From IMG/VR virus record IMGVR_UViG_3300005676_000020, positions 32,001 through 96,000 of that record: a DNA stretch of 64,000 nucleotides. One strand, 5' to 3'. Of the stretch, positions 531 through 47,196 are shown in pieces. Both the position numbers and the translations under genes were made by a program. How positions within the stretch are numbered: the first letter of the stretch is position 1; the number at the start of each line of letters is the position of its first letter. Origin of the DNA: a virus. The notes under the pieces are model-generated. The model ran no database searches. It was not told the DNA's origin and worked only from the letters and a program-made list of their open reading frames with translations.

Positions 531-1000
531 TAGACTTAAAAAAAACAGAAAAGGATCTTTTCGGCAAGGTCGCAAATATCCTTGTAGCGTTCATGGTGCT
601 TGCTTTATGGATAAAGACAATGCACCTTTTTGAAGGGTGGTTATTCTCCACCGAACTGATTTCCCAACTGTTTTTCTACCAGTATCAACACCCGCAACTT
701 ATAAATATTTACCTGTTCTGTATAGCGGCGCCGATAGGGGAGGAAGTAGTCTTCAGGCATTTCCCTTTACAGGTGCTGAAGTCCGTAAAGAAACCGGATC
801 TGTATTGGCCGGTAATACTGATGACCTCTGTCATTTTTGGATGGTTACACCAGGGTCACCTGAATATTCTCATCCAGGGTATGATAGGTCTGGTATGTAG
901 TGTTTTGTACATAAAAAATAATCATTGTCTATTGTCTGCCATAGCGTTACATAGCCTATGGAATTTGGCTATCCTGCTAAATTTGTTTAACTTTAACTAA
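527..1000 (+). CDS. CPBP/Abi (CAAX-like) intramembrane glutamic endopeptidase
   Basis: APIGEEVVFR, FGWLH and HSLWN motifs; multiple TM segments. Confidence 0.9.
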   Translation: MIDLKKTEKDLFGKVANILVAFMVLALWIKTMHLFEGWLFSTELISQLFFYQYQHPQLINIYLFCIAAPIGEEVVFRHFPLQVLKSVKKPDLYWPVILMTSVIFGWLHQGHLNILIQGMIGLVCSVLYIKNNHCLLSAIALHSLWNLAILLNLFNFN

Positions 1001-10000: not shown

Positions 10001-10365
10001 AGGATAACGATTGGTTCCACAACTTCGCCATATACCAGCTGATGCTGATTAAATCTGAGGCTGAAACTTTCATTCCGTTGTTTGGTATGGGCATTAACGA
10101 AACAGTTAGGTTCCTTGGAACCCCTACTATTGCGTTTAACACCGCCCGGAGATGGGTTAAGCTGGCTAACGACTTCGTTTTGTGGACTATCGGCTCCGAC
10201 GCTGCCTTCTATCAGCAGGCTTCAGGTATATATGACGAAGGACAGATAAAGTACCTTGCCGACCTGTACAATATCATCGGCTGGAAGAACTTTGCCTATA
10301 TCACTTCAAATGAAGACCTGCAGAAAGGTATCGTAATGTATTCGGCCATGCAGAAGAGGATATAA
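1000..10365 (+). CDS. Giant virion/ejected (cargo) polyvalent protein, 3121 aa, with zincin-like HExxH domain
   Basis: Size, position, N-terminal APNG.ESIL/FGDW/DSNGEP motifs, HEFSH at 5281-5295, long helical C-terminal region. Confidence 0.75.
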   Translation: MANTCSILRNKETGEIEKVLAPNGQESILWKSLISIGELSINKEDTLRTWAVAYTTGFKNEFGDWELFQKARELSGSIEKAFYRDLFENEPEQFLFEMAQQLRSSDIEAQAARNVMGNDLAQIALQLFPNSVVGSKYTPQFTGKVDSNGEPLLEHVVSPPGLPWFEDAIPYTQNFEEIQFPDLAKYDDEIMQQLPVKVGAKKQVIKIKGLDVTEMKAKRPKEKKAVFIDSDTFQDIGKFIKDGPKDPTDFRHDIIRIGNNIYVKSGDNLAFKQFYPFLDFSKKYKVRGRTFYYLTNNFVYSPGSSIGASREYSIMKARAIKQGKFGIKPIKTKPRLTKRAKEAIEAFIEKKRSYIPLIKEEIEKFVYQVDKSRQSASDHLRSIANSYESLMDPSHKEEYIKILESRFLRQTEEFFKTYEGDDGEDMIKSTMSTLSNYLQKLPALVLFNMVHDQPVSEFSAMESEIDDEFSEFIYRFSVSSVIPESFISGENGRRISLKSIFDTVNVEIFSDRGLREKLTADEIMKISKSGIFRKVDTSNLKRTKALAVFLEVYDRHGHVAANTFWSAYRKNINTASAEIIQKYFNKNKGREEDYNSIMDDIRDTLKGVDKYSGAYVDSESIEYRTWFSRISSSFVPLIDIAEGIYKSASGSVELHILNRMLLEVPELGDDPYQRFRKIVDLIFTNEEDLSEEDRSVLEYLKTTKAKSLFNNILRAFRELLRFIIYGPDFQSRSAFEALSAQMDKVHEYLAGRNTVFSLQIGTGERKEEIVVNDQVVEIKNTEDRVRYGISSNIEVDTDENGVSETLLERFPEGSTLQYVRVLEAPNLKSVPVDFRFPHQLQKFIAPNLSIQDIPEGEFKSFLLNEMRYVKLKDYEKERLREKGGLGMIFNISSAVSKLYTSGKPKYSFEHKALLKTNLGVGSLPMYTLGENGSVFNIEFGAGANSPFPESLYERFRLDHGLRKLYIDKPIGWFGGVYSVENKTISVTEVQSDLLQRSKTIGELRSKVENYYDGWLYVFTGTAINLLLNYYEDVTHIRIPTSETYKKFKKESPSQYYDKIASVFPTTLSEDGRWHVIKVSDIFGKISPDKKSQFDFMIKAGVRAGVKEQKEITPDLQSDRDNAMDILESLKESEILGSYLKSSPDHVSEIEKWIEREFSNEKPMTDDTKGGELVGPDGEVIEEDEGYEETDMDRLVRETAANKKREYVFDLDWALDELSAAMKNNDTARVNFIKRLLEEHTSGKINFNRSSSGNYKQILSLDNQKIFEELIAKGLITERRWNGMYFVPKQYREPFRRPPFSYLKKDFRDGHFLDKNKYEELKAIIEVRGLSWLDVRPSNSGDSYVVRIFPTRQESMQTRLHEFAGKDAFIKIADRLSKRLGVPYKIIDAEQALKITEDSQIPWNGEGAFAYKGTVYVLQEALSLENAVHEFSHFFIEAVSKESPYLFSKLYKQLKDDPYTRERYLDLVERLYPDLSEEDKVKEVMVRALTDKALGLIDERGNVILEAIRKIFRTLANIIRTLFGVSVKNLNENTTLDQLAAILLGENDGEVLDLGDRNTGFFMNLFPMFNRDIANQLEKLTGSTVKSSIDSFFTVTDAHYQRLRQDKDLEKLKEILSNQKGTTLVSDERQILMRAADFARTLEENMKVDRAALITFAEAIEGQEVIAKKMADHVASVVTDKDMSTQEKLAIFRKYSFITKEWTTVVDLFMKAIKDSPVGRGRNPLSDSIQNMISDYKFIDNKIKDFYKEDGLPSLFREEIEGNIYYQAAMKEQEDRIKELEEAYKKDKNPAIKKKLDKERGLLERYKLTDETLAKYLSGEMGDTNHYSMYLESYTSNPDPIVGHFANWFMKHKFRAQSRAQQRMTAFENKISKIYKKLGYKPKDFQKVSENLVQIETFFDGYRNFKGEERKAWTFINQYGDDANGVGWQFEYNRLLQERESAKQRMHSPLRAPGYENMTGEEEYRRKNQAFEQFKLDYMFDEEADVIKEARLFWFRDANTHKAKMRREEVLNEIRALDYKDFSKDEALEKVTQSKALWRKYRQLGSIYDEMGNKKEGDELEIALTIREYNEKYGNLYEYVEISGAFESNLKSHEQQVADDLMSSGNYKTEAEAKASPEFRAAIQKWYRDNIRITLTETFYKERSDIAERLKAFSESLGDQKIKKNLEEVSEAWSEINRIIQGNRDDDRQPIGTDLSDEQRKRVLELQQKVMDLNSAFNQANNLSDEEDIEYGQYVLKNKVFFMELTEQEYARMKELEEKAGIKLTKDQYLEKKKIFDDLNALQSKIATPYYVDTVNDFLAASGSELRITPLSADELLTAEVIQPILRKNPEFRKWWNENHLEKQIYDKTVDAVVLKYNRSYVWNRNVPNDEMFKTLLDNGDYEGLSRYKSPYLEVKPAQEYFYRRLKPEFRHFQSRETLWITHDNRGNWLPKPTEATATPAQKEYMLKHKIPFAKPRFENKKYLDLRENKKDEFELLEAFKQFHLESQQDLARYARLGLEVPRLRKNSVENVDLSKLADKPKDWWNNIKGWLGAMFMKRQDDYELGTGSYIAPANRAQTYVLSDLMGDQINSIPIKYMSHVETDLVSMDIGKAVEMYAVSAETNKVLHEINPMANALKEVLSDPENKPKDLTKKRRNIIKIITDPLKGSTNNNANKKGNYNRLKIIENFLERELEGEVNIQQFGPFIEKIAHGLMKIGAWGSLGGNIFAALKNAVGGQIQNNLESVMGQKFTPKTMMQADLEFGKLMVDLMRDYYQIGDKSLYTQMFILFDPLNFFTQKAGSNFSKTVTRDALDLRWIMGMQKFGEINIQGSAWLAMMLHQKVAFTDPHSGVQKEIPYLEAWELKDGVLSLKKGVDSKWDRGNSNFLQFSASVHKVNELNQGAYSEESQPEINRYTLGKLFLFMRKFYIPASVNRFAPKRYNAGLGSFRQGYWMPLFEMIKNTATGHPLMPGTDDFKVMYSASERAAALRAASELATIALIGLMIKALGFNDSDDEKYDKLKDNDWFHNFAIYQLMLIKSEAETFIPLFGMGINETVRFLGTPTIAFNTARRWVKLANDFVLWTIGSDAAFYQQASGIYDEGQIKYLADLYNIIGWKNFAYITSNEDLQKGIVMYSAMQKRI

Positions 10366-17572: not shown

Positions 17573-18172
17573 TTAACCCAAAGGTAAGCGTTTTCCAGAA
17601 ACAGAACCAACTTTTTTTACAATTTTCAGGGAAGTTGTTTCTTTTGCTACGTTCGGCGGGTCCATCAGCTCTCCAACCTCTTCAAGATTGTCGACGCCGA
17701 TTTCTTCCGATACGAACTCGTAGTATAGCTCGGGGTACAACGACATGTGAATATGCCGCCCCGGTCTCGGGAGCTTATCTGTGGAAGCTCCATGGAAGGT
17801 TAGTATTCTTTTCTTAACACCTTCCGGGAAAAGGGAATATTTTCCTGCTCTGAACTTGGCCACTGTGTCTTTGATAGACGACAGATTAAACACGTATGCC
17901 TTTCCTCCATCTTCAAGTTCATACATGTGTTCATAGTACGGATTCTTTAGCAGGGTATTTCTTTCAAAGGGCTCATACAGGATTGAGTCAGTCCGTAAAT
18001 AGACTACCAAAAGCCTGTTGTTATCGATACTTTCTTCCTCGCCCCACCACATATAAGTAGACGGGGCGAATGGCTGGTCTCTTGATATCCCCAAAAGGGG
18101 AAACAAGTAGTTCAGACTTTTCTGAAAGTATTCACCGTAAAGGTACTTCTGAGGTTTAATCATCTCACTCAC
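17573..18172 (-). CDS. Hypothetical phage protein (YFQKS..YLFPLLG, F..GKYS)
   Basis: ORF in operon. Confidence 0.7.
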   Translation of the reverse strand: MSEMIKPQKYLYGEYFQKSLNYLFPLLGISRDQPFAPSTYMWWGEEESIDNNRLLVVYLRTDSILYEPFERNTLLKNPYYEHMYELEDGGKAYVFNLSSIKDTVAKFRAGKYSLFPEGVKKRILTFHGASTDKLPRPGRHIHMSLYPELYYEFVSEEIGVDNLEEVGELMDPPNVAKETTSLKIVKKVGSVSGKRLPLG

Positions 18173-18488
18173 ATTTTAAAAGTTCACCGTTCAGGTGTTT
18201 CTCCAGAAGCTTTTCGTACAGCTCTCTGGCACCTGGCACCCGGTCGATATCTATCTCGACCTGGGCGTGAACCTCGGGATGAAGCATTATGACATTCCAC
18301 TCGCACCACCTGTACTCTGGAAACCGTGATTTCGGAAGAATATGATGGAAGAATGTGGTCAATGGCTCATCGCCGAGGTATCTGTTCGTAATCTTGCATC
18401 TCCTGTTCGATTTTTCCCAGATTCTCGTGTAAAAGGCTATATCCTTTTGCCACATTTCCTTATTGTATGGTTTCTTCCTTCTTTTCAC
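18165..18488 (-). CDS. HNH-family nuclease (NinG-like)
   Basis: C..T, FHHILPKS, N...L...H. Confidence 0.7.
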   Translation of the reverse strand: MKRRKKPYNKEMWQKDIAFYTRIWEKSNRRCKITNRYLGDEPLTTFFHHILPKSRFPEYRWCEWNVIMLHPEVHAQVEIDIDRVPGARELYEKLLEKHLNGELLKCE

Positions 18489-19461
18489 TCGTTCCTTTTA
18501 ACACCAGTCCCCTTATCTCCTCGTATAGGTCGGGGTTGTTGGTAAGCATTTCGCTTACAGTCCCGATACCTTGCCCTAATCTTGAACCATTGTAATAGTA
18601 CCAAGACCCCTTTACGTCTATGATACCCATTTCGCTTGCAACCTCCGCAAGCTCGGCGATAGTGTCGATTCCTTTTCCAAACACCACATCGAATTCGGCC
18701 TCCTTATAAGGTACGGAGAGTTTGTTCTTTGAAACTATACATGTAGTACGGTTTAGAACCTTAACATCCGATCCCTTTTCTGCCAATACTTTCTTGGAAA
18801 CGTCAACTACCATGTGTGCATAAAACTTGAGCGCATTTCCTCCGGTGCCGGTTACTGGGCTTCCATACATTACCCCCGGTTTTTCCCGAAGTTGGGTTAT
18901 ATAAATGATCAGGCAGTTATGTTGTGCTGCCAGCGTTACAAATTTAGGAAGGCTTGAACTCATCAACCTGGCTTGTAAGGCCATGGATGCTGTTCCTACC
19001 GGGTCCTCTATTTGCTTTTTCGTGATGAGTGAAGTCTGAGAGTCAAAGACCACGACACCTATTGACCCCGATTTAATGAGTAGCTCGGCTATGTTATAGC
19101 AGGTTTCTGCACCATCCTGGTCAAGCTGACGAATAAGAAGTTCGTCAATGTTCACCCCCAAAGCCTTAGCGTACTTTGCGTCGAAAGAGTTCTCGCCGTC
19201 TACAAGAAGGCATTTAACTCCTCTCTTCTGAGCGTTCGCTATAACATTTAGGGCAATAGTGCTCTTACCGCTTGACTGCCAGCCCTTTAATTCAACGACA
19301 GCCCCTCTTGGAAACCCACCTACGCCGGTGGCTAAGTCCAATTTGAGACTGCCGGTGCTAATAACATCCGGTTTCTGCCTGGCTTCGTTACCAAACATAA
19401 CCGAACCCTCGCCAAATTTTTTTTCTACCTCTTCAAGGTATTTTTTAAGTTGTTTATCCAT
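18460..19461 (-). CDS. recA: RecA recombinase (start MDKQLKK)
   Basis: STGSLKLD, GWQSSGKST, QARLMS, QLREKPG, GGNALKFYA, SKNK. Confidence 0.95.
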   Translation of the reverse strand: MDKQLKKYLEEVEKKFGEGSVMFGNEARQKPDVISTGSLKLDLATGVGGFPRGAVVELKGWQSSGKSTIALNVIANAQKRGVKCLLVDGENSFDAKYAKALGVNIDELLIRQLDQDGAETCYNIAELLIKSGSIGVVVFDSQTSLITKKQIEDPVGTASMALQARLMSSSLPKFVTLAAQHNCLIIYITQLREKPGVMYGSPVTGTGGNALKFYAHMVVDVSKKVLAEKGSDVKVLNRTTCIVSKNKLSVPYKEAEFDVVFGKGIDTIAELAEVASEMGIIDVKGSWYYYNGSRLGQGIGTVSEMLTNNPDLYEEIRGLVLKGTSEKKEETIQ

Positions 19462-19474
19462 AAAATAAAGGTAG

Positions 19475-20524
19475 TCAAATTTCCTGGAACAGGGAAACTT
19501 TTCTAACACCTTTATTCTGGAAATCTGTATAGGACATGTTCCAGATTCCGTACGAGGAATGCCATGCAATCTCGTCAAGTATCTGGTTAACCCCTTTATA
19601 TTCTCTTCCGTTACGGGTGAACCCTTTCAGGCCTATTTCGAGGTCCTTCATCGAAGTAGTGTAGATTAACGGCCCTTCCATTACATTCTGGCTTGCTACA
19701 ATGAACTGCATTGGCATAATTTCCAGTCCAGGGTAATGTTCTGCAGCCCAAGCTTTTACAGCTTGGTAGTATATAGACCACTGCAGATAGTACCGGTGTT
19801 TAATCACGTTCACCTCAAAGTTCCAGCCTACCGTCTTAAGGTCGTAGATGTATATCTTCTTCTCTTTCAGGTCTACGATGATAATATCACACATAGCCTT
19901 CATGTCATGACCCTGGTATCGGAACTCGATAGTTTGTTCCCGCAAGACTATCGTATCCTTGTCGCTCCTGCGGTTTACTATATGAGCTGTTACACTATTG
20001 GTTTTCAGCTCGTTGACCGTCATATTGGCAAAGTCGAATGTTCTGAGGTCTATCACCTCCTTGCCATAGTTGTCAACCTTCTCTTGGTAGTAAGGTAAGC
20101 CTTCGTTTCTGAATCTATCATAAACTTCTTCAAACGACTTACCTTTAAATGATACTCTCTCGCCGTTGCGGTCGAACGCAACCTGGTCGAACGCCTCTCT
20201 TACCAAACCCTGATCTGGGTCTCTTACCAGCTCTCCTCCTGTCGCCACTATTTTCCACAGGCTATCCACAAGTTCTTTCATCTGAGGTTTCGGAGTAATA
20301 CCTACTCTCAACGGACAGAATCTGTCGTCGAACTCTTCCGGCGTAAGTAGAAGACAATGAACCACGTCCCCGTAAAGGGTCGATGACTTTTCTTCGTCCT
20401 CTGGTTCCTTCAATATGTACTTCTTGTAAAACTTAAGTCGACTGTCCTCAAAGTCTTTGCAAGCACTGTAGTTAATGTACGGCAGCTTTTTATACTCACT
20501 TCTTGTTCTTTGTACAATTTGCAT
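19475..20524 (-). CDS. PD-(D/E)XK exonuclease (RecE/DUF3799-like)
   Basis: YS..K.F, G..VH..LL, KAMCD..IYDLKT, Y.LQ..Y. Confidence 0.8.
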   Translation of the reverse strand: MQIVQRTRSEYKKLPYINYSACKDFEDSRLKFYKKYILKEPEDEEKSSTLYGDVVHCLLLTPEEFDDRFCPLRVGITPKPQMKELVDSLWKIVATGGELVRDPDQGLVREAFDQVAFDRNGERVSFKGKSFEEVYDRFRNEGLPYYQEKVDNYGKEVIDLRTFDFANMTVNELKTNSVTAHIVNRRSDKDTIVLREQTIEFRYQGHDMKAMCDIIIVDLKEKKIYIYDLKTVGWNFEVNVIKHRYYLQWSIYYQAVKAWAAEHYPGLEIMPMQFIVASQNVMEGPLIYTTSMKDLEIGLKGFTRNGREYKGVNQILDEIAWHSSYGIWNMSYTDFQNKGVRKVSLFQEI

Positions 20525-20528
20525 GACG

Positions 20529-20536
20529 CAAATCTA
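20529..20536 (-). promoter_or_regulatory. TAGATTTG -7 promoter box
   Basis: 4-nt spacer to ATG at 20524. Confidence 0.6.
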
Positions 20537-20785
20537 GGTATTTTCTTCGTAATTTCCAAGAATGGCTCCATTCTTGTTCGCTACACAGTACTGAGCGTAG
20601 CCTTTCATCACGGCTACTGGCTGAGTTTTCTTGCTCTTAGTGAATACTATCTTTTGAGAGAACATGGAGATGTTTGGCACTATGTGGCATTTGCCACGGA
20701 AATGGACAGACCACATAACCTTACCGGCTTTGAGAGATGCCGGTTTATTATAGTGCGCCGTCCATACGTAGTGTCTTCTCTTCAT
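20534..20785 (-). CDS. Hypothetical protein (HYNKP..SVHF.G.C)
   Basis: ORF in operon. Confidence 0.6.
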   Translation of the reverse strand: MKRRHYVWTAHYNKPASLKAGKVMWSVHFRGKCHIVPNISMFSQKIVFTKSKKTQPVAVMKGYAQYCVANKNGAILGNYEENT

Positions 20786-21089
20786 TTTTGGATTTTATCA
20801 TTGCTGAAAAAATAGCCGAATAGCAGGCCAAATCCATAAGGGTGTCATGTACTGACTCGTCCTTTACCTGCAAGGATTTTCCGGCGCTAAAAGACGCTAA
20901 CCTGCTCATTTTGTCCATCATCCTTGTCAGGATTCCGGTTTCTGCAGATATACCCAGACTCTTCACCGACTCAAAGTTGGCAAATGGATTGTCTGAGGTG
21001 TTTGTATAGTCGGAATTTTTAGCCTGTAGCGTATCCAGGCAAGTATCAAAGAAGCTTCCGCAGTGCTTTAAAAAATCGTTTTTATTCAT
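20748..21089 (-). CDS. Nucleotide-modification associated domain 1 (DUF1599, MazG-like) protein
   Basis: KNSDY, F.NF, RMMDKMSRL, DESVHDTLMDLACYS. Confidence 0.8.
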   Translation of the reverse strand: MNKNDFLKHCGSFFDTCLDTLQAKNSDYTNTSDNPFANFESVKSLGISAETGILTRMMDKMSRLASFSAGKSLQVKDESVHDTLMDLACYSAIFSAMIKSKNEEKTLRMDGAL

Positions 21090-21546
21090 GTATTCTACCT
21101 TTAAAAAATCTTAACACATGTCCATTCCAGCTATCGATAAAGATAGCCTTCTCCGTGAAAAGGTAGTGGGTTTCCCAATAAGATAGGCTTTGCCGGTCTT
21201 TACAGAACTTGAGTATGACTCGTTGAAAGCCCTCTGTAGAACCTCTTTTTTTTATGTATTCGAGAAGGGGTTTACAGCTACCCCAGTAATCCTTCCAACC
21301 ACTGTCTTTGTGTTCTACAACCACTCTTTTTCTTGTGCTTTTCCTTGCTTTCTTGCCAAGACGTCTCTTTCTCTTGTGCTGAAAAGCCTTCTTTCCCCAA
21401 TAAGGTATGCCTTTGTCATCTATGATAACGTAGACAAATCCATAGAACCCTTTAGGGGCAACTCTTATCTCTTTCTTCTTGAAAATCCAATTCATAGAAG
21501 GGCGAAGATATTGAATCTCCGCCCTTTTACAAAATTTAAAGTTCAT
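21082..21546 (-). CDS. GIY-YIG-superfamily nuclease
   Basis: YGFVYVI...YWGKK...WKDYWGS...E; true start may be MNWIF. Confidence 0.7.
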   Translation of the reverse strand: MNFKFCKRAEIQYLRPSMNWIFKKKEIRVAPKGFYGFVYVIIDDKGIPYWGKKAFQHKRKRRLGKKARKSTRKRVVVEHKDSGWKDYWGSCKPLLEYIKKRGSTEGFQRVILKFCKDRQSLSYWETHYLFTEKAIFIDSWNGHVLRFFKGRIHE

Positions 21547-22114
21547 CCAATGCTGACTTCAGTAAGTCTTCGATGTATCTCTTCTTCTCGCCTATTGTCC
21601 TGAAAGCTGGCATCTCAGGCTTTCTGGCAAAGGCCCCGGAGATATTCTTCTGAACTCTGATTTCTCCCGGAAGGGAGCTAATCAGCCTTCTCAGCACTGC
21701 ACCCAGGTCTCCTGACAAAGCGTCTGTTTTAACATAGCTCACGGTCAAATCCCTGGTATCTATCCAATCTTCCATTCTTTCGATGTAAAAGACGTCTATT
21801 TGGCCGTCCTTGGTAAGTTCAGCTAAAAGTCCTTTCGCTCCTATGTACGTCTTTTCCTTGTACTTAAAAGCGAAGGGTCTGGAGTACACGTCGATAACTT
21901 CCTCTATTTGAGACCGGGTGAGAGATATTAAGCCGGCACGTTTGCTCGTAGCATAGTACTCGAACTTATTCTCGTTCTCCATAGCCCCTCCCAGAAAATA
22001 GATTGGAAAGTTCACATCAGAATGGTCGAAGTACGTTCCTGAATTTGTCAAGACTGCCCTTTTGACAGCCTCATCAGCATAAGGAACTTGCTTGAATTCT
22101 GCTAACTCAGTCAT
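21536..22114 (-). CDS. Hypothetical protein translationally coupled to E1
   Basis: Overlaps the ThiF stop codon. Confidence 0.7.
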   Translation of the reverse strand: MTELAEFKQVPYADEAVKRAVLTNSGTYFDHSDVNFPIYFLGGAMENENKFEYYATSKRAGLISLTRSQIEEVIDVYSRPFAFKYKEKTYIGAKGLLAELTKDGQIDVFYIERMEDWIDTRDLTVSYVKTDALSGDLGAVLRRLISSLPGEIRVQKNISGAFARKPEMPAFRTIGEKKRYIEDLLKSALDEL

Positions 22115-22832
22115 TGCTGTACATGTTTAGTGGAACCATGTATTCATGGTAAAACGGAAGTTTTCTTATATTCTTCTCCTTTCCTGTGTTAAAAGCCCAG
22201 TTCGTAAGGAACGCCGTCATATGTGAGGCTATCATCGCCGCACAATGCGAAGTCTGCTTAAATGTACAATCCGCCTCCAGAACTTCGTTGTCGCTGAAAA
22301 GGTAATCCTTTTCGTAGCGGTCCATGTTCTCTGTACTGTCACCGGTAATGCTAAGTATTTGCATGGTCTCTGCCAGGAGTCTGCCGTCCATGAACAAGCA
22401 GTTCCTCCTGTCCTTAGGGTCAAGGCTCTCTACGTGCCGTCTCCAGTTCGCAAAGGCCACCTTTCTTGCAACCATGTTATCAAATCCGCAAAGAACCACA
22501 TCGTTCGTAGGCTCATCCTCGGTGTACTTACCAAAACACTCTACCACACAGTCGGGAGATAGCTCATTGATGAGCTCCTTCATAGCTTCTGCCTTATTCT
22601 TACCTAAGGCATTTTGCTTTACAATCTGACCGGTCATATTATGTTCTTCGTATATGTCGTGGTCGTAAAGATAAAGCTCACAGCCGAGACGGCTGACTAA
22701 AAAGGAAAGGTGAGAGCCTATCCCGCCCTGTCCCAAAATCATAACCGGTTTTTTATAGAGTGAAGGGAACCATTCGGCTCCCTTCATTCTTGCATACTGG
22801 CCCGGAACAACCAGTTCTTTTTCTTCTGTCAT
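22107..22832 (-). CDS. ThiF/E1-like ubiquitin-activating adenylyltransferase
   Basis: LGQGGIGS, YDHD..EEHN..GQ, NKAEA, GFDN..AR, DGR, candidate catalytic Cys in EADCTFK. Confidence 0.92.
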   Translation of the reverse strand: MTEEKELVVPGQYARMKGAEWFPSLYKKPVMILGQGGIGSHLSFLVSRLGCELYLYDHDIYEEHNMTGQIVKQNALGKNKAEAMKELINELSPDCVVECFGKYTEDEPTNDVVLCGFDNMVARKVAFANWRRHVESLDPKDRRNCLFMDGRLLAETMQILSITGDSTENMDRYEKDYLFSDNEVLEADCTFKQTSHCAAMIASHMTAFLTNWAFNTGKEKNIRKLPFYHEYMVPLNMYSND

Positions 22833-23830
22833 ACTTCTGAGTCTTGATAATCGTATTTTGCCAGGTCACGGAAACATTCTCCCAGGTCTTCAGTCGCATC
22901 GGCGTTAACCATGTGATAGTTATCTCTCAGAATCCTGGAGGCAGTTTCACAGGTGTTTTTGTAGCGCCTGAGTCCAGGGTCGCTTTCGAACCAGAAGCGG
23001 TAAGCCTCTCCACTCCTCTTTCTTATGCGGTCTTTTACAACCTCTTTCTCCTGCTTGGTTTTATCATCGTACTCGTTCAGGAGTTCGATGATGCTTTTTC
23101 CGCAGTTGACTTCTCCGGAGAGCAGATGTCTGATATAATTATACATTCCTCTCTCAACCTCTGAACCTTTTGGAGTTTTGCTTTTCTTGGTCTCAGAAGC
23201 CGTGCGAAAAAATCCTGAATCGGAAGTACCTCCGGGGGACTTCCTGGCTTTAATCTCCTGGATTCTTCCATTGACGTCGTCAACAGGGACATTTCCTGGT
23301 AAGGTTATGTCGCAATCGTAAACGAAGATATAAGTCTCTCCGTCAGGAACAACTTCCTGTGCGGGTTCGCCTTTTTCGTTCCGATATTCCAGAAGAGAGG
23401 TTTTCCTGACAGCTCTGAAGGCTATTTTAGCCACCATGTCATTGTAGTTGTTCACTATCAGCGACAGGTATATATTGTGGAATTCAGAGTTCGTTTCGAG
23501 CTCATCAGTATCCGTTCCGGAGAAGAACACTGACATTGAATTATGAGAATGAATATGACCTTTGGTAAGACCAAGCAGATGCTTGTTCTCCATCATATGT
23601 TTCACAATATCCGGCCCGTATTCATACTCGGTGTAGCCGGCAGTACCTATATCCATAAGATACAGTTCTTCAGCGCGGCATTTGAAATCCGGGGTTCCAA
23701 AAGAACCTTCGGTCTTATAGAATAGTACACCTGACCATTCTACATTAGGCACCTGCTTGCAGATGTGGCTTATCTGCATCTGCAGTTTTTCTGATATCTC
23801 CAGAGGCACCCGCATTGGAAGAGTTCTCAT
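22829..23830 (-). CDS. JAB/JAMM (MPN+) metalloprotease with C-terminal extension
   Basis: VEWSG plus exact H-x-H-x7-S-x2-D (HSHNSMSVFFSGTD); start could be 23929. Confidence 0.9.
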   Translation of the reverse strand: MRTLPMRVPLEISEKLQMQISHICKQVPNVEWSGVLFYKTEGSFGTPDFKCRAEELYLMDIGTAGYTEYEYGPDIVKHMMENKHLLGLTKGHIHSHNSMSVFFSGTDTDELETNSEFHNIYLSLIVNNYNDMVAKIAFRAVRKTSLLEYRNEKGEPAQEVVPDGETYIFVYDCDITLPGNVPVDDVNGRIQEIKARKSPGGTSDSGFFRTASETKKSKTPKGSEVERGMYNYIRHLLSGEVNCGKSIIELLNEYDDKTKQEKEVVKDRIRKRSGEAYRFWFESDPGLRRYKNTCETASRILRDNYHMVNADATEDLGECFRDLAKYDYQDSEV

Positions 23831-24842
23831 CTCTAACGAGTCTTTTGTAGACCATGCTTTTGATTTCTTCCCGTACGAACTTCGTGATTTCAGGCCTTGG
23901 GTAATAGGCTTGTTCTGATTTTTTTTCATTAATTACGTCTTTTACTATTGGTTTGTAATGGTGTCCTCTGAAGAACACCCCATGTCCGAAAAGCTCAGGG
24001 TTATTAAGAGCACTTTTGCTAAAATCGTTGTTTATTTCAGGTTCGACATATGTACCTGATTCTGTCCTGAAGCATATGTACTTTTTTCCGTAAGCTTCAT
24101 GGAGCTCTTTGCCGAAAACCTTTTCGAAAGGTGTTTTGATGATAACTTCTACGGAAGGAGAAGTTATAAGAGTCAGGTTTTCTTTTAAGTGACCCTTGCA
24201 TTTTGACAGGACTTCTCTAATATTGTGCTTGTCCGCGTCGGAAAGTTCGTTCTCGTGGACAATCGGCTTAACGGCTTGGTCTTGTCTGACGAAACCGCTC
24301 GAGTCTTCGACATTCTCCCACTCTAAGTATGCTTTCAAAGCTACGGCAAAAGCTTGGAATGGAAGTTCCTCAAACTGAGGTTTATGCCATAAAGCGGGTA
24401 TTATCTTAGACAAAGGGCCACTGCCCATACACACACCTTCAAAGTAACCAGATCCTACTCCGTGACCCATGTTGGCATGAGCATCAGGGACGTCAGTAAA
24501 CGTGGTTCTCGCGAAAATCGGAGCTTGATTGAACGTGCCAGTAGCTATGCTCAAACTAAAGTTCACGAATATATCGTTTACAATCTTCACTCGCTGCTCG
24601 TAGTGACAACGAACGATTATTTCATCGTACCGAACTAGTATAGGAAAGCTACCCCCAGGAAACCTTAGGCCTGCGGAAGCGTTGATCCTGATACATTCAT
24701 CGATATTTTCGTTGTAGCCGTTGATAATCTCGTAGTTCTTTCCGAAGCACCTGTCAAGAGTCTTCTCAATCCTGTCCCACAGATTCTTGTCCCTTTTGTC
24801 CCACTGGTTTCTTAGAGACACTTTTGATATTGCCATTAGCAT
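23745..24842 (-). CDS. Prokaryotic E2-like (UBC-fold) protein B
   Basis: ARTTF...HAN...VCMGSGP (HPN-like motif plus Cys); paralog of 24766..25818; operon context. Confidence 0.65.
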   Translation of the reverse strand: MLMAISKVSLRNQWDKRDKNLWDRIEKTLDRCFGKNYEIINGYNENIDECIRINASAGLRFPGGSFPILVRYDEIIVRCHYEQRVKIVNDIFVNFSLSIATGTFNQAPIFARTTFTDVPDAHANMGHGVGSGYFEGVCMGSGPLSKIIPALWHKPQFEELPFQAFAVALKAYLEWENVEDSSGFVRQDQAVKPIVHENELSDADKHNIREVLSKCKGHLKENLTLITSPSVEVIIKTPFEKVFGKELHEAYGKKYICFRTESGTYVEPEINNDFSKSALNNPELFGHGVFFRGHHYKPIVKDVINEKKSEQAYYPRPEITKFVREEIKSMVYKRLVRDENSSNAGASGDIRKTADADKPHLQAGA

Positions 24843-25818
24843 TTAAGTTTTTAGATAATACAACGTCTTCTATTGCACCTACAACCTGTTTAAGAACGTT
24901 CGGGGAAACTACGTAACCACCGGCCCGTAGTAAGTTCTCTGCCTTATCCGAAGCAATGGTCAGATGAACCCTCTGTCCCTTAAAGACAATATACTTATCT
25001 GGAAACACATGACCCTCCCAACTTCCGGGGGTGTCGACTTCCCTACTTTCCTGAACGTAAGTTTTAGTATAAGGGTCTTTAAGCGCTAAGAGATTAAGGA
25101 ACTTCTGAGCACATATATTCCCTAAAACTAACTCAAATGAGGGAGAAGCTATAACCTTCATGGAATCTCCCTCCTGTACCAGATTCAGATATTTCCATGC
25201 TTCGTGGTTTTTGAGCTCTTTAAGAATTTCGGCTAACTGTTCTTTTGTGGCTGAGGCCACTGCAGGAGTTTTGGAGTATCTTTGTATGTTTTCGTACCCC
25301 GGTTCTTCCCATCCAAGGAAGGCCCTCAGTGCAACCAAGAAAGCTTTGAACTTTGGTTCAGTGATGCATCTCCCCTGTTGTACACAACAACTGTCGAAAA
25401 CATCGTTAATAACACCATTTCCGGTACACAAACCATTAAACTTGTGTATTATCTTCGGGGCGTTAGGATGCGAATGAAGGTAACCACTTGTATATTCGTG
25501 GTAAGTAGCTTTCGTCCTGGCCACGTAGAACCTGAGATGCGGCATGAAAAGACCGTCGTTTTTTACAAAGAACCTTACGTATACATCTCGGATGACATGA
25601 CTTCGCTTATGTACGTTTGTAACTTCTATCGAGTCATACCGGACGGTCACCGGTGTCATATTCATACGAGAGGTTACCATTTCCGGATAATGCCGTTGCT
25701 CCGAACGCATTTGACTCCACTCCTCTTCAGTAACTTTCTCAGGGAAGTCAAAGTTCCCCTCTCCGAAGAAATCTTTAAGACATTTAGTTATGATTTCCCG
25801 GGTATTTTTGTTGACCAT
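24766..25818 (-). CDS. Prokaryotic E2-like (UBC-fold) protein A
   Basis: ARTKAT..GYLHSHPN...LCTGNG, F.AF.VAL.A.L.WE; operon context. Confidence 0.7.
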   Translation of the reverse strand: MVNKNTREIITKCLKDFFGEGNFDFPEKVTEEEWSQMRSEQRHYPEMVTSRMNMTPVTVRYDSIEVTNVHKRSHVIRDVYVRFFVKNDGLFMPHLRFYVARTKATYHEYTSGYLHSHPNAPKIIHKFNGLCTGNGVINDVFDSCCVQQGRCITEPKFKAFLVALRAFLGWEEPGYENIQRYSKTPAVASATKEQLAEILKELKNHEAWKYLNLVQEGDSMKVIASPSFELVLGNICAQKFLNLLALKDPYTKTYVQESREVDTPGSWEGHVFPDKYIVFKGQRVHLTIASDKAENLLRAGGYVVSPNVLKQVVGAIEDVVLSKNLNANGNIKSVSKKPVGQKGQESVGQD

Positions 25819-25857
25819 CTTGTTTCTTTTTGTAGATGGAAAAAAAGAAAGGTTGTC

Positions 25858-26145
25858 TTAGACAACCTCTCCACTTTTAACCCTTATCGGGGTAAGGAAA
25901 AGAGTCAGTTCCTGTTCTATGACACTCTCCTCCGTTAACAAATCTTCGTCTCTTTTCAACTCGTTTTGGTTTTCTCCTACCACTACTTTCATACCTTCAT
26001 AGTTAACACCTTGAATGGCAAGCTCTCTTTTGAGTTGACCGAAGGTCTTTGCCGTAGAATCAAAAGATGTTTGGCATGTACCGCTGGTATTATACACGGT
26101 AATTTTCCTTGTTGGTTGCTCTTTCGGAGCGAATTCCTGGGACAT
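25858..26145 (-). CDS. Ubiquitin-like (beta-grasp) modifier precursor ending KSG|EVV
   Basis: RKITVY-strand, TFGQLKREL-helix, L..D..L, LFL..KSG pattern; first gene of the E2-E2-JAB-E1 run. Confidence 0.75.
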   Translation of the reverse strand: MSQEFAPKEQPTRKITVYNTSGTCQTSFDSTAKTFGQLKRELAIQGVNYEGMKVVVGENQNELKRDEDLLTEESVIEQELTLFLTPIRVKSGEVV

Positions 26146-41996: not shown

Positions 41997-43460
41997 TTAT
42001 TTCTTCATGTTGAATCCGGCAGAATTCATAGCTGCTACAAACTTAGGAACGGTCAAGGCCTCTTCGTTCTGGAATATCTCCCTGGCAGCAGATACAAGAC
42101 GTTCTGCAGCACTTGGAGCTTTACCTTTCAGAGTAGCCACTTCCATCTGCTTTTTGTAGGACCGGATAGAGTTTATGATATCCTGGCAGGTGACCTTGTT
42201 AGAACCTGAATAGATAAGATGGCTTTTAACCCTGTCGAGGATTTCAGCAATGAAAGCAGGAACAATCTTCTCCTCTTCCATAATCTTAGCCGCAGGCATA
42301 CAATCATCAACCAGCAGGGATTGCTTGTTTTCGTCCAACAGGCTTCTTTCAATCATCTTTTTAGCAGTCTCGGCATCCGGGTGTGTCAGCGTGACAATGG
42401 TACCAATCCTCTTACCTCTTAAGAAGGTAGGGTCGATTTGCTCTATATGATTGGTAGTCAATATAGTTATCACGTTGTTGTGCTTGGTTTCGCCACCGTC
42501 CATAATCACAGAAATCTGGTTTGTCAGGTCTGTTCTTTCGTTCAGAATCCTGTCAATGTCTTCCATGAAGATGACCACTCCCTTACCGTTGTTGCTGAGC
42601 ATATTGGCTACGTCCAGTGCATACAGCGCCTTTTCAGGTGTTGGGCAGTAGACGAAAGACCATCCGTTAAGAACGGCTTTTCTCGCCAACTTAAAGGCGT
42701 ACAGGGTTTTACCGGTTCCGAAGGTACCTTCCAACAGAACGCCAAAACGAAGGTCAATACCTTTCATTTTGCAACGCTCACTGTGTTCAATCCTCGCCTC
42801 AATGGCTTTGGTAGAGAACACGGCGTCCGGTGTAAGGAAAAGCTCCTGACGGTCGATACTGCTCAGGTCGATGAACTGGGGAGACCTTTCTTCGTCGGTT
42901 ATCTTGATAGCCTGGCCCTTGTAGATAGAATCGGTTTCTACCAGTTGCTGGGTTTCTTCGATGATGCGGTCCATCAATCTCACAAACCTTTTCTCGCACT
43001 GACCTGTGAGAAGGAACATTCTTGTCTTAGGGTCGTACTGCATGTCGATGAAAGAATCCTTTCCCAGAGAGGGCAGGTTTATCTGGCCAAACGGAACCTT
43101 CTTGCGGCTACCGTCAGCAAATCTTACGTCTATCATAGACGGCGGATTCGTTCCGGAGATGTTCTTCTCATCCTCCTGTGTGGTGAATCCATGGATGCTT
43201 TCCACGGCCCGGCTAAGAGCATACGCTCCGTCCTCTTTAAAGCATTTGATTTTGTAGTTGAATGCTACAATCCTGGTGGACTCTTTAATCTCGTTCTGAA
43301 CATATTTCAGAATCTCGTCATAGGATTTGTCAGGGTCTTCCAAAACCTTCTGGAGTTTTTCTTTCATCTCCTGGTCGGCTTTGTTGTAATGTTTTAAGGA
43401 CTTCTTTTTCCTTACGGCAACTTCATTTTGTTGCATCGGCTTTTCTAAAGCGTTACTCAT
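41997..43460 (-). CDS. AAA+ ATPase (classic AAA clade) with phage-type N-terminal domain
   Basis: GVLLEGTFGTGKT, IFMEDID, TTNH..IDP.FLR..R. Confidence 0.9.
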   Translation of the reverse strand: MSNALEKPMQQNEVAVRKKKSLKHYNKADQEMKEKLQKVLEDPDKSYDEILKYVQNEIKESTRIVAFNYKIKCFKEDGAYALSRAVESIHGFTTQEDEKNISGTNPPSMIDVRFADGSRKKVPFGQINLPSLGKDSFIDMQYDPKTRMFLLTGQCEKRFVRLMDRIIEETQQLVETDSIYKGQAIKITDEERSPQFIDLSSIDRQELFLTPDAVFSTKAIEARIEHSERCKMKGIDLRFGVLLEGTFGTGKTLYAFKLARKAVLNGWSFVYCPTPEKALYALDVANMLSNNGKGVVIFMEDIDRILNERTDLTNQISVIMDGGETKHNNVITILTTNHIEQIDPTFLRGKRIGTIVTLTHPDAETAKKMIERSLLDENKQSLLVDDCMPAAKIMEEEKIVPAFIAEILDRVKSHLIYSGSNKVTCQDIINSIRSYKKQMEVATLKGKAPSAAERLVSAAREIFQNEEALTVPKFVAAMNSAGFNMKK

Positions 43461-44419: not shown

Positions 44420-44739
44420 AGCTTTTCCTTTGTCACTATGTGAAAGAAGTTCTGGAGTTCGTGGGCTTCGGTAAAGACAACAGATGGTAACTTAGTGTAA
44501 CTGAAACCCTTAACTTTCAGATTGTCATCCGTCACAGACTGCAGCGAGAAGCCGGTAGTCTTATGTGTCCATACACCTTGATGATGTATGAACCCGAGAC
44601 GGTCCTCGAGGAATTCGGAAGTTATGGGCATGGGTTTCGCATTGGGTACCCTTCCTGCATGTATCTCGAACACCTCATGATTGTTTACTCGTCTGGGTAC
44701 ACCGTACCACCTGACGAAATTACCCTTTATCAGCTCCAT
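44416..44739 (-). CDS. Bacteroidota-phage hypothetical protein (EL..GN.V, P.PIT.E.L, HELQN)
   Basis: Motif pattern. Confidence 0.65.
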   Translation of the reverse strand: MELIKGNFVRWYGVPRRVNNHEVFEIHAGRVPNAKPMPITSEFLEDRLGFIHHQGVWTHKTTGFSLQSVTDDNLKVKGFSYTKLPSVVFTEAHELQNFFHIVTKEKL

Positions 44740-45091
44740 TTTCTTCTAGTTGATTTAAAATGTCATCCACTATCTGCTGGATTTCATTGCTGTCCGGCTC
44801 ATCTGGGGAGAAGGTGAACAACTTCATCACCAGTCCGGCGACAATAGCTGAAGCTCCTACCAAAAAGAATGCCTGAACCAGAGATTCCAGTAGTCCTGTA
44901 GACGGCCTGAGTAATGTATATCCTATTGCAAACCAATGAGATATGCAGTAAGGACATGAAAACAAACTACCGAGCCATCTGGATTTCAGGCGTATCCAAC
45001 GTCTCGGCTTTACAAATATTTTCCCTTTGGTAAGGGTGAGTGATGCCGCTGCGATAGCAACCGGCACCACCACCATGTTTATGTATTCCAT
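44720..45091 (-). CDS. DUF1360-like membrane protein
   Basis: IF...R, LFSCPYCISHW, TM helices. Confidence 0.75.
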   Translation of the reverse strand: MEYINMVVVPVAIAAASLTLTKGKIFVKPRRWIRLKSRWLGSLFSCPYCISHWFAIGYTLLRPSTGLLESLVQAFFLVGASAIVAGLVMKLFTFSPDEPDSNEIQQIVDDILNQLEENGADKG

Positions 45092-45279
45092 TAGCAGCCG
45101 CAGTTATCTTTACTGGCCTTTTTTAGTTCCCTCACCCGGTTCTCTACCTCTTTAAGTAGCGACTCAGTAGAGGATCTTTTCTTCTTTTTCATTGGAGTCG
45201 CATCGCTTTTAACGGAACCTTCTGGGTTTAACCCTTTGTCAGGGGGGTTAGTACCCTGCTTTTTCTTTTGCCCAAACAT
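45091..45279 (-). CDS. Small hypothetical protein ending CGC
   Basis: ORF between ARC ATPase and DUF1360. Confidence 0.5.
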   Translation of the reverse strand: MFGQKKKQGTNPPDKGLNPEGSVKSDATPMKKKKRSSTESLLKEVENRVRELKKASKDNCGC

Positions 45280-46849
45280 TATTTAAAGGTTTTTCTTCGT
45301 GTTTAGCCTCGTCGTCTCTTTCCATCATCTTTTGGATGGCGTTTTCGACGTCTGCTGCACTGACACCAAGCGGCTTTTTGTTAGATTTCAGGTCTCTCCG
45401 GATAGCCTCCGAAATCGCCTGGTCAACTAAACCTGCTATCATGGCGCCACTCACAGAATCTTTAAGGCTTGTACTAAATACCATCTCAGCGATGAATTCT
45501 GCCAGCTCCTCATTTTTATCATCCTGGACTTTGGTAGTTTTCAGGTTGATAAGAGCAATGTCTTTAACAGCTGGCTTATCAGGCCTTGCAACCTTTATCT
45601 TGACGTTAATTCTTCCGTCCCTGGTTACTGCCGGGTCAAGAACATCCGCTCGGTTAGTGGCCAAAATGATGAACGCAGAGGAATCTACAAGACCGTCCAT
45701 CTCGGTAAGAAACATCGGCACGATTGTCTTGTCAACGTCAGAAGAAATACCAGTACCTCTCTTGGAGAGGATTGCATCTGCTTCGTCAATAAAGATGGTA
45801 GCAGGGAATCCGGTATCTTCTTTATATTTCCTAGCCCTTTCGAATATCTGGCGGATAGTCTGTTCAGTAACGCCTACGTAAGGGTTCAGTATCTCAGGAC
45901 CCTTTACGTATATAAAGCCACTTTCCGTCAAATTACCGCCATATATTTTGGCCAAGGATGTTGCCACGGCCTTTGCCAAAAGGGTCTTACCGCAGCCCGG
46001 AGGGCCGTACAGAAGGATACCTTTAGCTGGCTTTTTATTGTAAAATTTGAATACTTCAGGTTTAGAGTGAGGAAGTTCGACCATTTCTTTTACCACTTCC
46101 TTGGTTCCTTCAAGACCACCAATCTGTTCCCACTCAACATTCATGGAAGTTTCCACGGTAAAGTCAGTGGTTTTCTGCTTGTTGTTCTTTACAACAATGT
46201 TACCAGACGGGTCAAGAACTACATGGTCTCCTTTCTCAATGGCTTCTACCTTACCTACGAACACTACCCGGGTACGGTCACCTTCGGAGATTTCACAGTA
46301 GCCACCGTCAAGGACTTCCTTGACCACGGCATTCTGACCGTATGGTACAGTGTTTGCAGAGCCTACTACAGCTCCGAATCCGTTAAGGATAACAGTCTCT
46401 CCTTCCTTAACTTCTATGTCGTAAGGTTTTAAAACCTCCTTCAAGGTGCCTCCAGACGAAATGGTTATAGTTTCGACACCTTCCGTTTTAGGCGTTTCAA
46501 GCCTTAAATCGGAGATATGTACGTCCACAGTACCCCCCTGAACAGGGAGTATCCTGACAGTCTCTCTGTCTATTACGTTACGTACTTTTGCGTTCGGATA
46601 GAACAATCCGTACTTTTCCAGGCTGGCAGCGGCCACCTTTACAGAAGTCCCTTTCTTAAAGTCTTCGATTTCCGGGGGGACTTCCCGGGATATTTTGTTC
46701 CCGGTCTTGATTACCACTCCATACGAAAGTGGTACTCCGGTCAACTGTTCAACTTGCTCCTGCAGTTCGCGGTTCTCCTGCTCTAAAGCAAGAATTTCTG
46801 ATTTCAATCTGTCTAACAGACGTGCTTCTCTTTCTGGTGTCATTTCCAT
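45248..46849 (-). CDS. arc: ARC/Mpa-like proteasome-associated AAA+ ATPase
   Basis: N-terminal coiled coil, P.SYG/OB region, KGILLYGPPGCGKT, KGPEILN.YVG.TE, RGTGISSDV..TIVP, VKIKV.RPD. Confidence 0.85.
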   Translation of the reverse strand: MEMTPEREARLLDRLKSEILALEQENRELQEQVEQLTGVPLSYGVVIKTGNKISREVPPEIEDFKKGTSVKVAAASLEKYGLFYPNAKVRNVIDRETVRILPVQGGTVDVHISDLRLETPKTEGVETITISSGGTLKEVLKPYDIEVKEGETVILNGFGAVVGSANTVPYGQNAVVKEVLDGGYCEISEGDRTRVVFVGKVEAIEKGDHVVLDPSGNIVVKNNKQKTTDFTVETSMNVEWEQIGGLEGTKEVVKEMVELPHSKPEVFKFYNKKPAKGILLYGPPGCGKTLLAKAVATSLAKIYGGNLTESGFIYVKGPEILNPYVGVTEQTIRQIFERARKYKEDTGFPATIFIDEADAILSKRGTGISSDVDKTIVPMFLTEMDGLVDSSAFIILATNRADVLDPAVTRDGRINVKIKVARPDKPAVKDIALINLKTTKVQDDKNEELAEFIAEMVFSTSLKDSVSGAMIAGLVDQAISEAIRRDLKSNKKPLGVSAADVENAIQKMMERDDEAKHEEKPLNNVWAKEKAGY

Positions 46850-47196
46850 TTCAGTTTATTATTGTTCGGATAAAACCCCACACCAAACCATGGTAGGTTG
46901 AAGTTCTGGAAGTTGTTTCTCCATTTTATCTGAATCTTGAACTTGCACAGTCCTAACGGGACTGAGATTATGATATGGTCTCTACCTGGTTGGTTTTTGG
47001 TCATGAACTCGTGAACCCAGGTCTGATTGTACTTACCGCAAGGACATTTCATTCCTTCCTTGGTAGGTATCAATATTTGCGATTTCTCGCAGCCGGCTCT
47101 GCCACAGGTGAACGGATGGATGTCCGTCCTTTTCTGGAACCTTCTAAGATTCTTCAGTTCCTTTTCCGTAAAAGGCGCTTTCCTTGTTTCCGACAT
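46840..47196 (-). CDS. Zn-binding hypothetical protein (HPFTC...CPC..Y.Q.W.H)
   Basis: Cys/His pattern. Confidence 0.65.
   Translation of the reverse strand: MSETRKAPFTEKELKNLRRFQKRTDIHPFTCGRAGCEKSQILIPTKEGMKCPCGKYNQTWVHEFMTKNQPGRDHIIISVPLGLCKFKIQIKWRNNFQNFNLPWFGVGFYPNNNKLKWK

Follow-up and report, generated by a model that had tools for sequence, protein, structure and literature searches.

The 64,000-nucleotide window analyzed in this work (bases 32001-96000 of the 142,129-bp viral record IMGVR_UViG_3300005676_000020, CheckV completeness 100%) carries a gene of an ARC-like AAA+ ATPase followed by two small genes, and the three of them form a conserved cassette, in which the ATPase gene comes first and the genes are translationally coupled in the window. 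All coordinates below are window positions, and all genes of the cassette are located on the minus strand. The ATPase (533 aa, 45248-46849) is encoded by a single uninterrupted open reading frame (ORF) running from ATG to the stop codon. Its 3' end is overlapped for 32 nt by the start of the gene of a Pup-like mini-protein of 62 aa (45091-45279), hereafter referred to as PupL, the stop codon of which is fused in the sequence TAATG with the start of the gene of a 123-aa DUF1360 membrane protein (44720-45091). In BLASTP and hidden Markov model (HMM) searches, a DUF1360 gene was located directly downstream of the ATPase gene at 16 loci, 14 of them from viruses or assemblies and two from metagenome-assembled genomes (MAGs), and a small Cys-tailed ORF (56-89 aa) was present between the two genes at every one. 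The contigs reached via the PupL profile alone (see below) displayed the ATPase, PupL and DUF1360 genes in that very order (3 out of 3). Virtually all phage loci sampled carry the three genes together. Hence the constant partners of the ATPase are the adjacent PupL and the DUF1360 protein, and not the ubiquitin-like (Ubl) operon, which is situated elsewhere in the window (21536-26145).

A preliminary description of this DNA, made from the letters and translations, had reported the ATPase gene together with several characteristic strings, and VKGPEILNPYVGVTE, KRGTGISSDVDKTIVP, NVKIKVARPD and the C-terminal EKAGY were all recovered in the translation; its layout of a coiled coil, an OB-like region and an AAA domain is borne out by the AlphaFold2 model, by Pfam and by the alignment with a canonical-ARC HMM, which was made from 59 canonical ARCs. 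The AlphaFold2 model, built on 40 homologues (predicted local distance difference test score, pLDDT, 86.6), shows a helix (aa 5-37), then beta domains (42-117 and 122-222) and the AAA+ module (approximately 232-495), and closes with a long helix (498-532). The N-terminal helix (46739-46837) is a predicted coiled coil followed by a conserved T-x-P-(P/L) hinge; it aligns weakly with the coiled-coil/hinge part of ARC (HMM positions 75-138) and is kept across the homologue alignment. The next segment, aa 42-144 (46418-46726), is beta-rich, with modelled strands within 42-117 and 122-140, and varies by indels among the homologues; about 65 of its residues (aa ~78-144) are unaligned to the canonical-ARC HMM and are thus an extra element. 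In the homologue encoded at the phage locus L013 this beta-rich region gave weak matches to MIB_HERC2 (2.6e-4) and DUF4314. The OB-type beta domain (aa 145-222, 46184-46417) aligns with the ARC interdomain (HMM positions 133-230, starting from aa 145), and, on the whole, residues 145-439 of the ATPase correspond to HMM positions 133-440 (278 bits) and residues 462-513 to positions 494-543. The AAA+ module (aa 232-495, 45365-46156) contains one Pfam AAA domain (PF00004, residues 278-420, E 1.5e-33) with Walker A GPPGCGKT, the pore loop P-Y-V-G, Walker B IFIDEAD, sensor-1 N399 and the arginine fingers R410/R413, all these positions being invariant or nearly so across the 40 homologues. The C-terminal helix with the tail (aa 498-533, 45251-45358) ends in KAGY, the pLDDT of the very end being low, and possesses neither a beta-grasp domain nor a GQYL or HbYX motif (HMM positions 544-593 are unmatched).

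Family scores, structural comparison and phylogeny place the protein next to ARC. In the NCBIfam ranking TIGR03689 (ARC/Mpa) came first with 296.1 bits (E 4.7e-88, profile positions 25-380 of 512), followed by CDC48 (199 bits), PAN (174-191) and FtsH (144); the score obtained in the genome search was 279.6 bits, and the equivalog cut-off of TIGR03689 (504.75 bits) was missed. The best single-domain match of the PDB sequence search was Mpa (5kwa, 220 bits, ATPase residues 133-455), VAT and p97 being ranked above it because two domains are summed in their scores. With Foldseek each of the top 30 matches of the ATPase model was a chain of Mpa (E 7e-32, 33% identity over about 427 columns), and the Rpt subunits came next (E 5e-23). 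The likeness to ARC, as given by the E values of TIGR03689 and Foldseek, goes far beyond chance. BLASTP revealed 38% identity to the Streptomyces ARC over 418 residues, starting from aa 127. A tree of the AAA module (IQ-TREE, 82 rows, 287 columns, LG+C20 with posterior mean site frequencies) was reconstructed with canonical ARCs of Actinomycetota, Nitrospirota, Poribacteria and others, PANs of DPANN archaea, Cdc48 and FtsH as references. The canonical ARCs formed one clade (100/98), the ATPase fell into another one, composed of phage, metagenome and candidate phyla radiation (CPR) sequences (98/93), and the two were joined with the support of 100/99; PAN formed a separate clade (100/100), and Cdc48 D1 and D2 as well as FtsH also remained outside the pair. 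Within its clade, the ATPase belongs to an all-viral group of 11 sequences (100/99), the sister of which is a Nomurabacteria group. These sequence and model comparisons support the assignment of the ATPase to ARC-type unfoldases, of neither the PAN nor the Cdc48 type, and, as judged from the sequences, it is a non-canonical ARC, a member of a phage/CPR clade sister to canonical ARC. Of the designation "actinobacterial-type ARC/Mpa", proposed in the preliminary description, the ARC type is thus retained on the strength of the family score, Foldseek and the tree, whereas the position inside the actinobacterial ARC clade is not, the clade being a sister one; the phylogeny against PAN and Cdc48, which that description had named as a check, put canonical ARC nearest, as the sister, and excluded both alternatives.

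PupL, which is predicted to be disordered, has a basic N-terminal part rich in Gly and Pro; the helix STESLLKEVENRV comes next, and a further basic segment leads to CGC at the C-terminus. A profile built from 15 of the small ORFs retrieved 75 matches (E <= 1e-3) from a set of 1.84 billion representative proteins (clusters at 50% identity). Among these, 73 were short (56-89 aa), all 73 carried a C-terminal Cys motif, mostly CGC or CGCW, and none ended in GGQ/E. The consensus of the family is M..(K/R)KK..P.GGGG....(V/I)P.(V/I)DDVL.EID.AL.KA..(basic)..CGC. For comparison, 54 genuine Pup genes were taken from canonical loci, and 18 Pups were used in the profile-profile alignment: hhalign of the 73 PupL sequences against them gave a probability of 90.3% (E 1.5e-6, 19 columns), laying 'iddvL~eID~AL' onto 'DdLLDEID~VLE', and the probability was 65% when the 15-sequence PupL alignment was used instead. 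As is established for the Pup-Mpa pair (see PMC8755798), this Pup helix is the segment that binds the coiled coil of Mpa. A complex prediction with two copies of ATPase residues 1-228 and PupL returned a score of 0.22 (mark 0.32) and speaks neither for nor against their binding.

The DUF1360 protein contains a basic loop in addition to its three hydrophobic helices, and its C-terminal helix is acidic. Its match to PF07098 (25.5 bits, E 1.4e-5) lies above the gathering threshold of 21 bits, and its relatives reach up to 31.5 bits. The DUF1360 proteins of the cassettes share an invariant C-x-x-C-x-S-H-W motif (C46, C49, S51, H52 and W53); the motif follows a strongly basic loop and sits where the second hydrophobic helix begins. 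The AlphaFold2 model is all-helical (pLDDT 87) and gave no Foldseek match in PDB at E <= 0.001, and the homologue search with this protein alone retrieved two relatives only. In the literature searched we found no functional account of DUF1360 and no account of a phage or CPR ARC/Pup-like module.

Beyond viral records, the full cassette was also observed on contigs binned as cellular, namely on a 513-kb contig of a Gammaproteobacteria-labelled MAG (L022) and in a Saccharibacteria MAG (L023). On a contig of a Rikenellaceae MAG (L024) an ATPase of the clade is followed by a 55-aa ORF (6722-6889) with the helix motif IDDVILEIDTHL, lacking the Cys tail and with no DUF1360 gene after it; this locus may represent a decayed cassette.

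As to the possible protease partners, profile searches of the whole 142,129-bp phage for PF00227 (Proteasome/HslV), PF00574 (ClpP), PF05362 (Lon_C), PF03136 (PafA/Dop) and PF05639 (Pup) were all negative. The preliminary description regarded the ATPase as a standalone one, and so it is in this complete phage with respect to 20S/HslV and ClpP, which it had suggested looking for in the rest of the genome, and also to Lon; its statement that pup, pafA, dop and prcAB are missing is valid for the entire record as far as the canonical families are concerned, but the Pup-like gene overlapping the ATPase 3' end was overlooked. The C-terminal tails are of the form G[QHT]YL in canonical ARCs of proteasome-bearing lineages and MFG in the sampled DPANN PANs, and in the phage/CPR clade they are all different. 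The terminal Tyr of the ATPase is not conserved even among homologues 50-61% identical to it. Thus, the Tyr in KAGY, correctly noticed earlier along with the absence of a docking tail, is no conserved signal, because the tails differ throughout the clade, and its role as a docking signal was rejected. These comparisons support the view that the ATPase is independent of the proteasome and that the phage encodes no chambered protease.

The host of the phage is probably a member of Bacteroidota, which appears plausible from two features of its genome. Of the ORFs of the whole phage genome that are 120 aa or longer, only 5% are preceded by Shine-Dalgarno cores versus 11% in the background, fitting a host without Shine-Dalgarno-led initiation, such as Bacteroidota, and the DNA polymerase is nearest to those of crAss-like and Maribacter phages (about 29% identity). 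Bacteroides thetaiotaomicron, included as a control in the genome profile search, has no PF00227 protein.

The Ubl operon (minus strand; Ubl, two E2-like proteins, JAB and E1) is considered here as a possible accessory partner only. Its E1 matches PF00899 (ThiF, 3e-14) and the padloc E1-E2 profile (5e-10); JAB has an exact JAMM motif, HIHSHx7SGTD, with a weak Prok-JAB match (E 0.05); both E2-like proteins contain HPN..C motifs and have no family match, nor has the 95-aa Ubl (25858-26145), which ends in KSGEVV. As judged from these sequences, the operon is real at least in part, and the distance of 19 kb between the ATPase and Ubl genes was given correctly in the preliminary description. ThiF (E1) was found in five of the 15 other ATPase-bearing viral records and in one of the five that are at least 90% complete, as raw counts. 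In three of the five (G002, G005 and G009, the latter two being near-identical) ThiF belongs to a different cassette with JAB and a QueC/GATase fusion, so that these genes were rejected as representatives of the same Ubl system. The jumbo-phage cassette in question (L123, G002:C1:143000-161000; L124, G005:C1:150000-169000) encodes an E2-like protein (HPN..C), ThiF, JAB, the GATase+QueC fusion (563-580 aa) and a second short ThiF-like protein, and may serve in the modification of nucleotides or DNA, or constitute another kind of Ubl system.

Besides the window phage, two other phages unite both modules. In the closest viral relative of the window phage, G001 (L122), the Ubl operon is syntenic and the two modules are at the same spacing of about 25 kb. 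In the phage record G007 (L013) the ATPase, PupL, DUF1360, two E2-like proteins, JAB (HVHx7SxxD), E1, a Ubl ending in RGN and a methyltransferase are encoded on one strand, the DUF1360 stop overlapping the first E2-like start by 4 nt. The E1 proteins of the window and of L013 are 25% identical (5e-19); besides E1, the two operons are connected by motifs only, and no BLASTP match was obtained between the E2-like and JAB proteins in the window and their L013 counterparts. From the other side, the ATPase (TIGR03689, E <= 1e-20) and DUF1360 were absent from all 17 other viral records with relatives of the window E1, five of which are at least 90% complete. The counts made from the E1 side and from the ATPase side show that the modules are separable and were combined in about two independent lineages. 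The link of the ATPase to Ubl is facultative and confined to some lineages.

Several further genes lie near the cassette. Directly upstream of the ATPase gene, a 118-aa Cys-rich protein (HPFTCGRAGCE...CPCGKY; 46840-47196, minus strand) is encoded by a gene whose stop overlaps the ATPase start; it has no Pfam match and is kept in this position only in the closest relatives, L004 and L007. Located 1.8 kb downstream, a gene of a second AAA ATPase (487 aa, 41997-43460, minus strand) matches phrog_10440 (5.6e-59) and, weakly, PAN/IetA-like AAA proteins; it is about 70% identical in the same two relatives and lies outside the wider cassette. In L004, whose ATPase is 61% identical to that of the window, genes of GroES, GroEL, a PTH2 peptidyl-tRNA hydrolase and an Acb2/Tad1-hairpin protein (from a family of anti-CBASS/Thoeris sponges) are found a few kb downstream of the cassette (17708-21192). 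Elsewhere in the window, positions 1000-10365 of the plus strand are occupied by one ORF of 3121 aa, on the strand opposite to most genes.

Considering these data, we propose that the ATPase is a proteasome-independent ARC-like AAA+ unfoldase working together with the coupled PupL and DUF1360 proteins, and we assign to this reading, the mechanism included, a probability of roughly 0.6. By analogy with the capture of Pup by Mpa, the paired N-terminal helices of the ATPase hexamer would capture the PupL helix, and the basic disordered N-terminus of PupL would enter the pore. Since PafA/Dop is missing and PupL does not end in Gly-Gly-Gln/Glu, its ligation to lysines is presumably not involved. 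The two C-terminal cysteines of PupL could rather be linked with the CxxC cysteines of DUF1360, sharing a metal ion with them or forming a disulfide, on the side of the membrane that faces the cytoplasm. Such a link would leave the motor either parked at the membrane or pulling on DUF1360 and whatever DUF1360 holds, the action being ATP-driven unfolding or extraction and not degradation.

Several points weigh against this proposal. The binding of PupL to the ATPase is predicted from the helix similarity, and the Cys/metal link of PupL with DUF1360 is what we infer purely from conserved residues and positive-inside topology. The Pfam Pup model (PF05639) matches none of the 15 PupL members, and the similarity to Pup is limited to 19 columns, so that an acidic amphipathic helix may have arisen convergently. 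Furthermore, some clade members (CPR L006 and L025; viral L017-L019) have neither PupL nor DUF1360, which implies that the ATPase can work without them, and the genes of GroES/GroEL and of additional AAA proteins present nearby in related phages would agree with the ATPase being a chaperone of a general kind. In one alternative, the ATPase would act directly on phage or host proteins, either as a general chaperone or disaggregase of the phage or as an anti-defence unfoldase, with PupL and DUF1360 merely co-transcribed and having separate jobs. It agrees with the lack of PupL or DUF1360 in some CPR members of the clade, with the second and third AAA genes and GroES/GroEL situated a few kb downstream in close relatives, and with the phrog_10440 gene of the window itself. 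However, a joint function is suggested by the fixed gene order, by the overlaps and by the finding that the trio recurs with ATPases sharing only 36-48% identity, and PupL has just that Pup helix motif which in the known system binds exactly such an ATPase; on balance, we find this alternative rather unlikely.

In the preliminary description the ATPase was supposed to recognize proteins tagged with the phage Ubl and to unfold or segregate them, making up a viral tag-and-unfold pathway. Co-occurrence, which had been proposed there as a check, speaks on both sides. The two modules are found together, at the same spacing, in the window phage and in its closest viral relative, and the co-oriented cluster of G007 joins them through overlapping genes; besides, the extra beta-rich insert of the clade could bind a partner. 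Against this stand four of the five near-complete ATPase-bearing viral records, which have no ThiF, and all 17 E1-bearing records devoid of the ATPase and DUF1360; moreover, the ThiF genes of G002, G005 and G009 are those of the QueC/GATase cassette, only about two independent lineages unite the modules, and the universal neighbor of the ATPase is PupL, not Ubl. With ThiF in one of five near-complete ATPase records and the ATPase in 0 of 17 E1 records, the claim that the ATPase reads the phage Ubl tag is weakly backed and not supported as stated, and we consider it unlikely. Far less probable, in our opinion, is docking of the ATPase on a chambered protease of the host (20S, HslV, ClpP or the FtsH/Lon chamber), which it would feed with substrates as Mpa does the 20S core. 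The overall ARC/PAN-like build and the aromatic final residue of the window ATPase are in line with such an activator, but the penultimate-aromatic (HbYX/GQYL) motif and the ARC C-terminal beta-grasp region are missing, the tails differ in every homologue, no protease was found in this phage, PF00227 is absent from the 15 other viral records carrying the ATPase, and, with the host assigned by Shine-Dalgarno cores and DNA polymerase, the likely host group has no PF00227 either, as judged from the B. thetaiotaomicron control.

Returning to the unfoldase operating with PupL and DUF1360, a broader interpretation may be put forward tentatively, as a possibility: phages and some tiny CPR-type bacteria might possess a branch of the Pup system that operates without ligase and proteasome, in which PupL, clasped through its C-terminal Cys pair to a dedicated membrane protein, recruits the unfoldase to the membrane for extraction or remodelling of a membrane-associated target, and in some phages this branch might be wired into the E1-E2-JAB operon as a complete viral tag-and-unfold pathway. 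The sister family is well populated: it comprises dozens of ATPases and, at 50% identity, at least 73 clusters of PupL. Occurring in phages and CPR-like genomes, it has lost the ligase and the proteasome along with the docking tail, has kept the Pup-like recognition helix, and has gained the Cys-ended tail and the membrane partner. If the proposed mechanism is right, recognition of the Pup type is older than pupylation or has survived it, an unfoldase is employed by phages at the membrane of the host, and a functional context is provided for DUF1360 for the first time. The view that the ATPase works for the Ubl operon, attractive but weakly backed, is to be corrected: the link is optional and lineage-specific.

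ARC/Mpa with Pup is the textbook actinobacterial degradation system coupled to the proteasome. The phage ATPase shares with Mpa/ARC (TIGR03689; PDB 5kwa, 5kzf and 7px9-7pxd) the N-terminal helix with the hinge, the OB-type interdomain, the single AAA+ module and the signature strings. It differs from them in that the canonical lid hairpin (HMM positions 441-493) and the C-terminal beta-grasp/GQYL region (544-593) have no counterpart in it, in the beta-rich insert of about 65 residues, in the score below the family cut-off (296 vs 505 bits), in the absence of dop, pafA and prcAB from the phage and in its occurrence in phages and CPR-type genomes. PupL resembles Pup (PF05639) in its similar size, disorder, often Gly-rich N-terminal part and the common helix 'DD(L/V)L(D/x)EID(D/x)(V/A)L', but ends in CxC (mostly CGC/CGCW) after a basic stretch, whereas Pup ends in GGQ/GGE; there is no ligase or deamidase beside it, and its gene lies between those of the ATPase and the membrane protein, while that of Pup lies between dop and prcB. 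ARC ATPases without the 20S proteasome and the GQYL end are also known from the Corynebacterium-type loci (Corynebacterium, L050; Demequina, L033; Actinotignum, L071); these, however, are placed inside the canonical ARC clade and have kept the pupylation enzymes (Corynebacterium glutamicum was PF03136-positive in the control). With PAN/Rpt (TIGR01242) the phage ATPase has in common the coiled coil, OB and AAA layout and 35% identity over the OB2-AAA part, the differences being the score of 191 bits, the separate 100/100 clade and the single OB domain and HbYX-type end of PAN. FtsH and some other AAA+ machines are tethered to the membrane, and the unfoldase proposed here would likewise be held at the cytoplasmic membrane face; unlike FtsH-type machines, the phage system has no protease domain, and its anchor would be a separate protein joined via an adaptor. 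By way of analogy only, the predicted pairing of CxC of one partner with CxxC of the other would resemble the 'zinc clasp' of CD4/CD8 and Lck.

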